IMG/VR virus record: IMGVR_UViG_3300020045_017536 | Coordinates: 1 to 33,300 of that record | Strand: one strand, 5' to 3' | Origin: a virus | Lineage: Duplodnaviria; Caudoviricetes | Length of the DNA stretch: 33,300 nucleotides | Part shown: positions 4,165 through 28,347 of the stretch, piece by piece | Layout: each line of letters begins with the position of its first letter | How positions within the stretch are numbered: the stretch's first letter is position 1 | The notes under the pieces: model-generated | Told to the model about the DNA's origin: nothing | Database searches by the model: none | The model's input: only the letters and a program-made list of their open reading frames with translations | Made by a program: the position numbers and the translations under genes

Positions 4165-4515
4165 CTACAAATGATCTTCGTAGTCCTGGAGGAAGAGTTG
4201 AAATTCACCCAGTGCCTCGCGTTCTTTCATCACGACATGTTTGAGGGACTGGAGCAACGCAGCACGGGAGGGATAGGTCTTCTGGAACCACAGGTCAAAG
4301 GCCATCGGGGTGAGGTGGGCGGAGAAGTCGGAGCCCCCCGTATGGCAGTCCAGACAGAGGCTCAGGCCGTTCTCCACCCGCCAGCGCAGGCTATGTTTGC
4401 GCCGCCCTTCGACATGATGGGCGGCGACAGCTTGGACTCCACAATGCTGGCACTGCCTGTTGTCACGAGTCAGCACCATCGACGACCAGAGGGTATCGGC
4501 GGTCTGAGGGGTCAT
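4165..4515 (-). CDS. HNH/NinG-like endonuclease
   Basis: ADTLWS...RDNRQCQHCG...AHHVEGRRKHSLRWRVENGLSLCLDCH. Confidence 0.75.
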   Translation of the reverse strand: MTPQTADTLWSSMVLTRDNRQCQHCGVQAVAAHHVEGRRKHSLRWRVENGLSLCLDCHTGGSDFSAHLTPMAFDLWFQKTYPSRAALLQSLKHVVMKEREALGEFQLFLQDYEDHL

Positions 4516-7405: not shown

Positions 7406-7548
7406 AAAATTTTGGTTAAGTTATTTGTTTTGGTTTCCCAGGATCAGGTCCATGCGGTGGGGGTTAAATGATCGCCATGTCGAGAATCAAACCAGCCGCC
7501 AGACTTATTTGATCCCCGATATGAATACCAAAACTTATTGGCACTATT

Positions 7549-7578
7549 ACTATAGCATACTAATATCCTATTTGTCAA
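7549..7578 (-). promoter_or_regulatory. Sigma70 promoter
   Basis: TTGACA-18bp-TATAGT with extended TG, immediately after a terminator. Confidence 0.7.
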
Positions 7579-7583
7579 GAGGG

Positions 7584-7617
7584 AAAAGGGGGTGAAATGG
7601 CAGTACCACTCACCCCC
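7584..7617 (-). terminator. Intrinsic terminator closing the SD-led cassette
   Basis: GGGGGTGA...TCACCCCC stem followed by TTTT on the minus strand, just after the stop at 7625. Confidence 0.7.
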
Positions 7618-7624
7618 AGGAGGC

Positions 7625-7846
7625 TTACTGCTGGCATTCCAACGACATCACGGTTTCGTGCGGATAGAGCGGTTCCAGCAACTCATGCAGGGTGCAGGTG
7701 AAGTCGATGAAGACTTCGTTGGTGGGCGTATAGAGAATCCAGGTGTGGACTTCTTTCTGGACGCGGACGCCCGGCGCGAGCACCAACATGAGCTGGCCGG
7801 TGGTCTCGTTCAACACGAGGGAAAACAGGGGGTCAATCTGAATCAT
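7625..7846 (-). CDS. Hypothetical 73-aa protein, paralogue of 8024..8245
   Basis: MIQIDPLFSLVLNETTGQLMLVLAPGVRVQKEVHTW..., preceded by SD AAGGAG. Confidence 0.7.
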   Translation of the reverse strand: MIQIDPLFSLVLNETTGQLMLVLAPGVRVQKEVHTWILYTPTNEVFIDFTCTLHELLEPLYPHETVMSLECQQ

Positions 7847-7848
7847 AG

Positions 7849-8034
7849 TTACACTCCTTCTTGCCGGGCACGGCGCTGGTGGATGACGGTCATCAATTTC
7901 TGGTAGCAGGGGTGGCAGTAGCCATGCGAGGCCTTGATGAGGCGTGGCCAGGGGAACCAAAACCCCCAGCGTTTCGAGGATGGCCAGAGGGGCCACCACA
8001 GGGCGTGGCAGACACAACACTGTCTACCCCACAT
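7849..8034 (-). CDS. Trp-rich zinc-finger protein (61 aa)
   Basis: MWGRQCCVCH...ASHGYCHPCY has a CxxC plus an SHGxCxxC motif, preceded by AAAGG. Confidence 0.65.
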   Translation of the reverse strand: MWGRQCCVCHALWWPLWPSSKRWGFWFPWPRLIKASHGYCHPCYQKLMTVIHQRRARQEGV

Positions 8035-8245
8035 ACAAACCTTTCGACCAGGGCTTGAGGGCGACCTCAATCGACTGGAGTCGGGCGTGCATGGGGTCGT
8101 CGTGCGAGATGTTGTAGCGATGGCCGTGGGCGTCCGCTTCCCAGTGGTGTTTGACCTTGTGGCAGGTCACGCCTTCATCGAGTTCGATGATCACCTCCTT
8201 GGTGTCGTAGTTGATCAGAATCTGATGCACGAGTAGATGCAGCAT
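8024..8245 (-). CDS. Hypothetical 73-aa protein, paralogue of 7625..7846
   Basis: MLHLLVHQILINYDTKEVIIELDEGVTCHKVKHHW..., preceded by SD AAGGAGG. Confidence 0.75.
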   Translation of the reverse strand: MLHLLVHQILINYDTKEVIIELDEGVTCHKVKHHWEADAHGHRYNISHDDPMHARLQSIEVALKPWSKGLYVG

Positions 8246-8260
8246 GTAGCCTCCTTGAGT

Positions 8261-8435
8261 GTCTTACACTCAGTGAAGCGGGAACCATGATCGTATGATC
8301 ATGACAGGCTGTTTATTTATGTCGGCTTGCGCTTGGAGCGTGCCAGCTGTGACACGGCCAGCCTCCCCGACAATGGAGCCGGCTTATCCTGCTGTCGTCC
8401 ATGCCAACCAGTTCCCGCCTCGCTGAGAGCAAGAC
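8261..8435 (-). ncRNA. Candidate ~175-nt structured (rod-like) RNA
   Basis: 8261-8285 pairs with 8411-8435 (21 of 25 positions Watson-Crick, plus 2 G:U on the minus strand). Inner stems TGTCGG/CCGACA (8320/8367) and GACAG/CTGTC. Confidence 0.5.
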
Positions 8436-8588
8436 GTGGAGGCAACCCGTATAGGCGTGTCGACCGCAGGGAACTTGGTCGTGGGCTGAGACATCTCACC
8501 ACTCACCTCCATCCGAATTATTAAAGTTCACGAATTTCCACCTTGATCACACGAATGTGTGTCGCATACGTTTGGACAGGAAGGGCAT

Positions 8589-8978
8589 TCAATCTTTGAA
8601 TTCTCCGACATACCATTGTTTGCCTTCAAACCTTATTGTCGATCTCCATCTATCATGGGCTTTATTCCAATGCACACCTCGGTATCCAGATTTATTTCTA
8701 TTAGGTAATCGCCTATTGATAGCATTCTGTGAAATCGTACAAAGCCGTAAATTCGATCGTTGGTTGTTCAGTCCATCCCGATCAACATGATCTACCATAT
8801 TTTCACCTCTCTTTAATCCAAGAATTTCCCGATGCATAAAAACACTTTCACCCATTTTTCCCTTATGGCGTATGGCATAATTTCCAGAACTACAACACCA
8901 TTTATATTTTGAGAGTTCTGGATAATCTTCATCGTCCACGAGTGTTTCTTTACCGTTATTGAGTGGAATGGTCTTCAT
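8589..8978 (-). pseudogene. HNH-AP2 homing endonuclease, C-terminally truncated
   Basis: MKTIPLNNGKETLVDDED...MHREIL...VDHVDRDGLNNQRSNLR...SGYRGVHW...WRSTI...YVGEFKD*. The AP2 helix (AARAY...GEFA.LN type) is missing. The ORF-track extension to 9209 runs through a promoter and leader. Confidence 0.8.
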
Positions 8979-10395: not shown

Positions 10396-10877
10396 AAGTC
10401 GAGGGTTAAATTCGATTGTACTGTATTGTGTACCCGTGCCCAGCTCTCAGAGAACTGGAGACTCGGATCAATCTGATCGCTCAAAACTTTTGTCTCTGAG
10501 GCTCCCCAGGAATGGTTATCATAACGGTGCAGTTCATCAGAGATTAAAGCATTACCAAAATAGAAGGCGTAGCCTAGAGGGGTCAGACACCATTTCAACT
10601 TATCATCAGAATGTGCGATTAAGCCCCAGTACTTCAGCTTCGTGCCATTCGTGTACTGGCTTCGTGTGGGCGAAAGTTCGGAGGTTTTGAACCAGTTGAT
10701 GGTCGAACCTTGCACATGCTTCACAATGATTCCAAGGAAGTCTAAGAGAGCTTTGTTAAAGCAATACTTGTAGATGATGACTTTTTGGCAACACTCGCCA
10801 CATCGTGAGCCGTTCAGACTACTTATGCGCGAGATTTGTTCGGGGGAGTAGGTCATGTGAGTTGGAGTTGTGGACAT
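10392..10877 (-). CDS. Hypothetical protein, possible zinc + winged-helix DNA binder
   Basis: CGECCQ and KLKYWGLI...WCLTPLGYAF. Confidence 0.6.
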   Translation of the reverse strand: MSTTPTHMTYSPEQISRISSLNGSRCGECCQKVIIYKYCFNKALLDFLGIIVKHVQGSTINWFKTSELSPTRSQYTNGTKLKYWGLIAHSDDKLKWCLTPLGYAFYFGNALISDELHRYDNHSWGASETKVLSDQIDPSLQFSESWARVHNTVQSNLTLDL

Positions 10878-11713
10878 TTTTCAGAAAGCAAGCGCATCAT
10901 GGCACCACGGTCTGGCCATGAAAGATAATTAAATTTTCCTTGTGTCCCATCACTAAAATAGAGTGTAATCAGGCCATTATATTTTCTAATGATAGGCAAT
11001 CCAAAGCTCGTCAAGGCATGATTGATCGATCCAAATCGCCGATAGAGGACTTGTGCCAACGACGCCCCACGATTCGATTGTGAGGGAAATTCCTGATTCA
11101 CACGAAGAAATTCAAAGGTACGACTTTTGAGTTGTTCTGGACAGGTCTCATGTTCATTACGAAATTCCATCGACTTGGGGATGAAGGCTTTCACGGGAAT
11201 CTTTGTTCTCATGGCGGCCATCTGTTCAGGCGTTCTGAGGCGAGTGAGCTGTCCACTCTCAATAATCTTTTTTTGATGCCCATAGGCCAGTTCATCGCTG
11301 ACTAAGCCAGTCCTCCGAGATAAGCCATAGGTTTCTTTATAGATTTTGGGCGTCAGTCCCGAGCATTTTTGCAGGTGGGCAAAGGCCAAGCGTTTGAGCC
11401 ACTGTCCACAGGCATGACATTGGACAAATTGACGATTCTCATCTTGTAGCAACACCCCTTGAAACCCATGCCCCTGCTCAGCCGCCGGCATCAGGGGGGT
11501 TTTCGCAATCCCAATATAGGCACGTCCTGTCTCACTCTCGGGATACGGATAGAGCTTATCAAGATAATCTTCTTTGTGGTCTTGAAAAAATGTGGACGTG
11601 ATTTTACTAATTTTTCGTGCACGACATTCGTCTGAACAATACCGACGATTGTGATGGGAATACTGGGTGACTTCAAATGGTTTGAGACAATGCAGACAAG
11701 TTTTTGAGGCCAT
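10853..11713 (-). CDS. Zinc-finger protein with MucR/Ros-like domain
   Basis: N-terminal CLHC...YCSDEC. Central VQCHACGQWLKRLAFAHLQKCSGLTPKIYKETYGLSRRTGLVS resembles the ROS/MucR motif. Confidence 0.6.
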   Translation of the reverse strand: MASKTCLHCLKPFEVTQYSHHNRRYCSDECRARKISKITSTFFQDHKEDYLDKLYPYPESETGRAYIGIAKTPLMPAAEQGHGFQGVLLQDENRQFVQCHACGQWLKRLAFAHLQKCSGLTPKIYKETYGLSRRTGLVSDELAYGHQKKIIESGQLTRLRTPEQMAAMRTKIPVKAFIPKSMEFRNEHETCPEQLKSRTFEFLRVNQEFPSQSNRGASLAQVLYRRFGSINHALTSFGLPIIRKYNGLITLYFSDGTQGKFNYLSWPDRGAMMRLLSEKCPQLQLT

Positions 11714-27753: not shown

Positions 27754-28347
27754 ATGTTCCTTACCAAATCGTGTGCCCAGTGTGGAAAAACCTTTGAGAA
27801 AAAACAGTGTATCTCAATGAAGGAATGGCTTGAAAAAACCATGTATTGTTCGAAAGCCTGTTGGTATGCCTGGAAGAAAGCCCAGCACAAGCCAGCATGG
27901 AATCATGGACTGACCAAAGCTGATCATCCCTCACTCCAATCGATGGCTGAGAAGAAAACAGGGATTAACCCATTTACGAAAGAACAGATGGAAGCCCAAG
28001 CCGCTCGGATGCGCGGCACGCATCACTCTGAAAGTACAAAGCAGAAAATGAGTGAAGCGCATAAGGACGAGAAACATTGGAACTGGAAAGGCGGGATCAC
28101 GGATGAACTGCATCGCCTGCGAAATCAAATGAATTACCAACACTGGAAACAGGAGACACAAACGCGGGATCAGTTTACCTGCCAACACTGTGGTCTTCAG
28201 GGGGCGCCCACGTCGAATCTACTCGACACTCATCACCTCAAGGCGTTCAAAGACTATCCGAAGTTGCGCTACGCGGTGTCCAACGGTATTACCCTCTGCA
28301 AACCCTGTCACACGAAAGAACATCATCGACTCAAACTTACTCTCTAA
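27754..28347 (+). CDS. HNH homing endonuclease with zinc finger and NUMOD3 motifs
   Basis: CAQCGK...YCSKAC, HHSESTKQKMSEAH, HWNWKGG, RDQFTCQHCG...HHLK...NGITLCKPCH. Confidence 0.9.
   Translation: MFLTKSCAQCGKTFEKKQCISMKEWLEKTMYCSKACWYAWKKAQHKPAWNHGLTKADHPSLQSMAEKKTGINPFTKEQMEAQAARMRGTHHSESTKQKMSEAHKDEKHWNWKGGITDELHRLRNQMNYQHWKQETQTRDQFTCQHCGLQGAPTSNLLDTHHLKAFKDYPKLRYAVSNGITLCKPCHTKEHHRLKLTL

Follow-up and report, generated by a model that had tools for sequence, protein, structure and literature searches.

Why should a phage that does almost entirely without Shine-Dalgarno (SD) sequences keep one kilobase in which they are strong? The window considered here (the whole stretch of DNA analysed, 33,300 nucleotides) is an entire 33.3-kb virus record, about 38% complete, of a tailed phage in which terminase, tape measure and tail tube genes are present (Pfam, PHROG), and the block at issue lies on its minus strand between positions 7584 and 8588. 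Nearly all leaders in the window, and in a related phage contig described below (L002), are G-poor and without an SD, often with a TAACC-like motif shortly before the ATG, which may be a non-SD initiation signal of the host. When the 52 leader rows of the window were scored against an assumed 16S rRNA 3' tail, the 48 rows outside the block (two of them guessed starts of an HNH gene) reached at most -4.9 kcal/mol, against -11.2 kcal/mol for the first gene of the block (gene A) and -9.8 kcal/mol for the last (gene B). Our guess at a CPR host comes from the G-poor leader style together with one weak terminase match, the best in genomes, to a Patescibacteria bin (33% over part of the protein, among 24 of mixed taxa). 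Passages of one study describe many Parcubacteria as lacking the anti-SD motif (PMC9297842). No tRNA or tmRNA was found in the window, and five HNH-like genes lie within its 33 kb (2415-2750, 4165-4515, 8589-8975, 10853-11713 and 27754-28347), of which that at 10853-11713 also has a ROS/MucR-type domain.

Genes of the block and their proteins

The three minus-strand genes that had been read from the block were found as described: gene A (P0003, 73 aa, 8245-8024, subfamily A), a zinc-finger gene (P0001, 61 aa, 8034-7849) that overlaps the end of A, and gene B (P0002, 73 aa, 7846-7625, subfamily B), whose own SD lies inside the zinc-finger gene. All three had been credited with SD-type leaders, which is borne out for A and B, whereas the AAAGG before the zinc-finger gene (-3.8 kcal/mol) is within the background range. 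A public gene call (P0005, 124 aa, 8020-7625, minus strand) stretches B upstream across the zinc-finger gene in a different frame, and the zinc finger is therefore missing from the protein collection. Upstream lies an HNH-AP2 endonuclease gene (8589-8975, minus strand; Pfam HNH_3, phrog_99) which does stop short, as had been noticed, since the last ~27 residues of the AP2 domain are missing and the alignment ends at residue 130 of 157 of the phage PE067 homologue; it is probably a neighbour outside the module. Downstream, a sigma-70-type promoter (11/12, 7549-7578, minus strand), kept in L002, serves the genes behind the cassette. No promoter is evident for the cassette itself except a 9/12 site inside the HNH gene, and none in L002, so the transcript ends are assumed. 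The block has no blastn match among 50,697 phage or 72,556 plasmid records.

That A and B are paralogues also stands, as a distant likeness: BLASTP finds no match between them, their Smith-Waterman score of 42 was reached by 6 of 5000 shuffles, and a single profile retrieves both. Searches of 5.8 billion and 1.84 billion proteins gave a family of seven members, split by a tree (support 99/98) into an A-type (P0003 and P0011, 40% identical) and a B-type (P0002, P0004, P0006, P0007 and P0008), with gene B 31-37% identical to its four relatives P0004, P0006, P0007 and P0008. Five of the 10 profile matches among the 1.84 billion proteins were dropped as repeat artefacts (244-2544 aa, with 4-18 matched stretches), a call that rests on inspection of two of them. 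P0011 and P0008, one of each type, are each on a Logan contig of 39,436 nt, and we infer that they share one contig on which the twin recurs. No family member was found in an exact-pattern scan of genome_contigs (185,579 genomes), and the family has no Pfam, NCBIfam or PADLOC match (0 of 7 proteins at E<=5 in PADLOC-DB 2.0), PHROG matches only at E>=0.095, no sequence match in the PDB and no Foldseek match there at E<=0.001.

The model of gene A is a five-strand beta-meander with a C-terminal helix (AlphaFold2 pLDDT 84.6), as is that of P0004 (pLDDT 74), for which the ESM Atlas gave no usable match. Structure comparison by VIA reached best Z scores of 3.1 and 5.8, which do not by themselves show a new fold; polo-box domains came top (Z 5.1-5.8, rmsd 2.6-4.3 over 64-69 residues), where the typical chance best is 7-8. 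The best structural neighbour in BFVD was A7XXA6 of Thermus phage P23-45 (TM 0.71, E 0.015), ranked second for the other model. This entry is most likely gp75 (P0015), the only 77-aa gene in the P23-45 stretch examined, and gp75 scores 11.2 bits against the family profile, a value equalled by 2 of 2000 shuffles. The gene beside it encodes gp76, an early inhibitor of host RNA polymerase according to passages of a paper in which gp75 goes unmentioned (PMC5758890). In some records gp75 (L089 11017-11250) and its homologues are labelled 'holin', yet gp75 has no hydrophobic helix, and the label is probably a mistake.

The protein of the middle gene (CxxC...SHGYCxxC, Trp-rich, net charge +8) has no sequence homologue that we could find, and 30 matches in the ESM Atlas, the best three at 0.91-0.93, being unnamed bacterial clusters of ~60-70 aa. 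Because it resembles many such separate clusters, we consider it probably a real but optional passenger.

A related phage and the predicted RNA lock

Among the 80 loci kept from a terminase scan, L002 is the one close relative (87%), and it has the same locus, downstream genes and gene order as the window, together with the leader and the hairpin at the end of the block. Upstream of that hairpin it carries a single 77-aa B-type gene, without gene A, zinc finger or 173-nt rod, and the gene further upstream is complete, where the window has the shortened HNH-AP2 gene. The leader is written in almost the same letters as that of gene A (window, CTCAAGGAGGCTAC, 8246-8259, minus strand; L002, CTCAAAGGAGGCTACA) before a protein only 21% identical to A, and its SD reaches -11.8 against at most -5.2 for 13 other L002 leaders. 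The 5' hairpin of L002 (22-bp stem, z -4.2) is unrelated to the rod of the window. Leader, long 5' stem, B gene and end hairpin are thus the constants across both phages. The initial annotation had proposed a fixed system of one RNA and three proteins; as L002 lacks both the zinc-finger gene and the rod, the RNA and the proteins do not form a fixed unit, and the parts are to some extent found apart, the content of L002 being different and the zinc-finger look-alikes lying in separate bacterial clusters. In IMG/VR, an alignment of the family retrieved only L002, as did one of the M23 lysin described next, and scans with A, B and the zinc finger singly found nothing. That lysin is a coiled-coil and M23 peptidase protein (window 6226-4991, minus strand; L002 1709-2920) whose N-terminus is near-identical between the phages while overall identity is only 54%, so that it is likely a lysin with a variable catalytic part.

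The end hairpin (7584-7617, minus strand; stem-loop 7617-7588) had been taken for the block's own terminator. The hairpin is there, with 37 of 38 nt identical in L002, but its T-tract is weak (four T behind it, three in L002) and a terminator scan calls neither copy. It is far better kept (97%; L002 639-676) than its flanks, and may be a protein-binding, stability or recombination site besides any terminator role; pattern scans for it returned L002 and four chance matches in unrelated coding DNA, and nothing else.

In both phages the bases between the last stop codon and this hairpin complement the SD leader. The element in the window, which we call the 3' anti-SD (7618-7628, minus strand), spans the stop codon of B and a 7-nt spacer and is the best partner of the A leader (-22.3, the next -18.2) when 20-nt windows over 27.5 kb of minus strand are compared. 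Over 7.4 kb of L002, too, its equivalent (633-640) ranks first as leader partner (-19.6), ahead of an unrelated site (-18.7) and of the 5' arm of the hairpin (-17.9). Leader and spacer differ in step between the phages, with two A / one T in the window and three A / three T in L002. In full-length folds seven pairs at p 0.94-1.0 join the 3' anti-SD to the SD of gene A, ~630 nt away, and across both phages seven to eight pairs join leader and 3' element at p 0.9-1.0. Between leader and 3' end 9.5 and 7.4 pairs are expected, whereas 32 other window genes have a median of 0.005 and reach 1.7 at most; these genes are a lenient control, their leaders being G-poor, and any CCUCC is a good partner for a GGAGG leader. 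The folds of the whole unit are more stable than shuffles in both phages (z -5.1 each; 0 of 100 in L002, 0 of 12 in the window). One study reports in vivo repression by anti-SD-like sequences far from the SD, and a depletion of such sequences from ordinary genes (PMC12697547).

A second partner lies at the other end. In predicted transcripts of the window that stop at 8200 or 8000, a 5' anti-SD (8437-8444, minus strand) pairs with the SD of gene A at p 0.96-0.99, and this element holds the SD at all 8 lengths that precede synthesis of the 3' element; the SD partner is 8440 at 8 of 9 lengths and then 7621. In L002 it is 297 at 8 of 11 lengths and then 634, so that the hand-over is alike in both phages although their 5' parts have no sequence in common. 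The freed 5' anti-SD is predicted to re-pair with a decoy, which in L002 is the 3' arm of the hairpin and in the window an upstream SD-like element (8503-8511, minus strand), whose core is joined to 8438-8443 at p 0.94-1.0 when the full-length RNA is folded. In the window the 3' element does not pair with the SD of gene B, which stands outside the lock. When the 5' hairpin of L002 is held shut and the 3' end removed, the unpaired fraction of the SD climbs to 0.40 (0.04 before), a change that costs 3 kcal/mol; at equilibrium the 3'-trimmed RNA is still locked by the 5' arm (0.04 unpaired), and release therefore needs a kinetic trap or a cut.

Both anti-SD elements (8444-8437 and 7628-7618) had been overlooked in the initial annotation, together with a fourth SD (8510-8503) before a 36-codon open reading frame. 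Its broader proposal of an RNA-regulated module gains support, in the specific form of a predicted cis-acting sequestration of the SD like that of toxin mRNAs. DNA context is available for two loci only, with nearly identical leaders, so the two tests of the lock are not independent and covariation is not scorable. We consider the lock likely to be real on the strength of these models, and it is this lock, rather than an RNA with three partners, that is predicted to be common to both phages.

The highly base-paired region of ~250 nt claimed for the 5' part narrows to a 173-nt rod-like hairpin (8262-8434, minus strand), closed by a stem of ~23 bp that is a candidate processing site; none of 100 shuffles was as stable (z -5.9; another run gave -5.0), whereas the preceding 86 nt (8520-8435) are no more stably folded than shuffled sequence (z -0.2, 82 of 200). 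We rejected an obelisk-like rod of the whole kilobase, the fold being branched, a retron, there being no reverse transcriptase among the 32 window proteins scanned, and an SD sponge (4 GGAGG per kb against 1 elsewhere), all copies being predicted paired or used. Further features were noted in passing. By eye, the site at 8529-8518 resembles the boxA consensus and is a candidate boxA. Inside gene A, AAGGAGGTGATC (8200-8189, minus strand) fits the assumed 16S 3' tail over 12 nt and may be a pause site or a further decoy, with no usable start codon following. The window holds exactly two copies of GGTGAGTGGT, one at each end of the block (8507-8498 and 7614-7605, minus strand); that at the upstream end is able to pair with the end hairpin's 3' arm (-16.5), and the two could be a recombination scar or an additional 5'-3' pairing. 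In L002, a small hairpin followed by seven T (317-347) lies inside the loop of the long 5' stem and is a possible attenuator.

A proposed mechanism and its rivals

The account to which we give an even chance is that of an accessory operon of one phage lineage, whose strong SD would always be paired, and whose small host-modulating proteins would be made only after RNA processing. In the growing transcript the 5' anti-SD would hold the SD of gene A; once made, the 3' spacer would take over the SD and the 5' anti-SD would pass to its decoy. Release would follow if the 3' spacer is trimmed or displaced once the 5' part has folded, and/or if an RNase III-type enzyme cuts the long stem; we put processing-triggered release at slightly below an even chance. 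A, zinc finger and B would then be made as a coupled burst, coupling to A being suggested by the way in which the zinc-finger gene and B overlap or abut the genes upstream of them. In the least supported step, the beta-meander proteins would bind a host protein and be harmful if mistimed; that the product is harmful or host-modulating we hold only tentatively. On this account the strong SD would be retained as the handle of the lock, and because a structured leader needs one, rather than as a mere mark of foreign origin.

Type I toxins that do not act at the membrane exist, SymE and RalR among them. The cassette may be imagined as a genuine type I toxin-antitoxin system whose toxins form a new soluble family, in which 3' trimming activates the mRNA and a cis-antisense RNA silences it, serving phage maintenance or the exclusion of competing phages. 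The architecture of the mRNA fits the hallmarks given in passages of the T1TAdb paper (PMC8594479), and folding at two loci predicts that cis anti-SD elements mask the SD both while the transcript grows and afterwards. A 9/12 antisense promoter-like site lies just beyond the end hairpin in both phages (window 7538-7566, plus strand; L002 707-679, minus strand). Such antisense sites are, however, no commoner than chance would give (2.1 and 1.2 expected per region); they overlap the AT-rich forward promoter, and none overlaps the 5' leader. The small hydrophobic toxin with a membrane helix that marks the membrane-peptide families is missing: none of the 8 cassette-family proteins has a hydrophobic helix (highest 19-residue hydropathy 1.39), the models are beta-meanders, and neither PADLOC nor NCBIfam gives a match. 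As no antitoxin RNA or membrane peptide was found, we do not class the cassette as a type I system, and consider this explanation rather unlikely.

We regard as rather unlikely, too, a moron received from an SD-using phage or host, in which the SDs, the GC3 and the folds would be leftovers of the donor and the pairings incidental. The GC3 of the three genes (0.80, 0.76 and 0.81, the 0.76 belonging to the zinc-finger gene in its called frame) is the highest of the 52 rows and fits a foreign donor, the two phages carry different genes at the site, the HNH gene upstream is shortened, and the look-alikes of the zinc finger are bacterial. Yet leader, spacer complementarity and end hairpin persist though the proteins have diverged, and the atypical composition is not shared by L002, whose gene has an ordinary GC3 of 0.64 behind a complete upstream gene. 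That sole close relative found carries no empty site but a shorter version of the cassette, while the 7 family members in 5.8 billion proteins give no hint of a donor lineage and the exact-pattern scan of 185,579 genomes gave no match. The near letter-for-letter keeping of the SD leader in L002 speaks against the recent foreign origin first suggested, and the pattern seems to fit selection for the SD better than recent import.

Unlikely, in our judgement, is the more ambitious idea that the SD would be a private on/off channel of an SD-free phage, because its mRNAs and those of its host would otherwise start without SD pairing. A doubly locked mRNA would store a new family of paired beta-meander effectors (A, B and optionally the zinc finger), to be made only on cutting of the lock or in the presence of ribosomes whose anti-SD is free. 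If true, CPR phages would possibly have here a new system, timed by RNA, for poisoning the host or taking it over.

The rod could instead be a free small RNA, a 6S-like polymerase decoy or another, acting with the three proteins. It is strong, and its 23-bp closing stem would allow it to be excised. It has, however, no promoter or terminator of its own, the L002 hairpin is different and shorter, and no Rfam family was found, a search at E<=10 of 8150-8650 giving one chance-level match. The 6S covariance model had no match at E<=10 in 8150-8650 or at E<=1 in the whole window, and the stem pattern had 0 matches in IMG/VR. The polymerase decoy that had been suggested thus finds no support, and we consider a free small RNA of any kind very unlikely.

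Control by a leader peptide is found in mok/hok and in plasmid rep leaders. Here, ribosomes on the 36-codon open reading frame (8384-8494, minus strand) would melt the 5' anti-SD and the rod, licensing A. The upstream element before this frame is the strongest SD of the window (-15.2 kcal/mol), and the frame takes in the 5' anti-SD as well as the rod's 5' arm. Its coding status is doubtful, in that it has no codon periodicity, no family match and no counterpart in L002; moreover the 3' lock would stay shut, and we find this explanation highly improbable. Last, an assembly chimera of host DNA would account for a composition and leader style unlike the rest of the contig, but has next to no probability, because L002, an independent phage contig, shares the site, the gene family and the order of the genes downstream.

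Significance and relation to known systems

The block is a real, conserved and rare module, an mRNA with a predicted SD lock that encodes members of an unknown protein family, in a phage otherwise without SDs. If the lock is true, it would be a double SD lock of the toxin-mRNA type on a new soluble family, in a phage lineage that does not use SDs elsewhere, and would explain the survival of a lone strong SD. The biology of phages of SD-less hosts is poorly known, and a search rule would follow for them: a strong SD with a complementary spacer before a terminator would point to tightly controlled genes. A search of the largely open-access literature joining Patescibacteria, phage and Shine-Dalgarno found no paper, and one for phage anti-SD locks returned known systems only.

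Several of these bear comparison. In Flavobacterium johnsoniae, rpsU (bS21) stands out by a single strong SD, with a regulatory role, among genes that lack one (PMC13000453); there the ribosome's own anti-SD is masked, whereas here the mRNA masks its SD, and a Bacteroidota host is not indicated. P23-45 gp75, an early-region phage gene, and its P74-26 and G20c homologues are like the cassette proteins in size and predicted fold, with a weak likeness around the last strand and helix, but they are only candidate homologues and gp75 stands alone, without SD leader, twin or zinc finger. Translation of T7 genes 1.1/1.2 is reportedly under RNase III control, a finding attributed to Saito and Richardson in 1981. 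These too are early phage genes with translation tied to processing at a long stem, as we propose here; their proteins are unrelated, and for the cassette the RNase III cut is a proposal.

Closer in mechanism is the icaR mRNA of Staphylococcus aureus, in which, as passages of PMC3868564 describe, an anti-SD in the 3' UTR pairs with the mRNA's own SD. Unlike in icaR, the element of the cassette is a spacer of 7-8 nt that directly adjoins the stop codon, and a second anti-SD, on the 5' side, has a decoy to pair with. The closest likeness is to aapA3/IsoA3 of Helicobacter pylori and to hok/Sok, where the SD is hidden during transcription and then by 5'-3' pairing near the terminator, as is predicted here; passages on aapA3 describe successive anti-SD elements and a long-distance 5'-3' interaction (PMC6733600). 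Unlike in aapA3 and hok, no antisense antitoxin was found here, the proteins are soluble beta-meanders of 73-80 aa rather than short membrane peptides, and the locked unit holds up to three genes, in a phage whose other leaders are SD-less.
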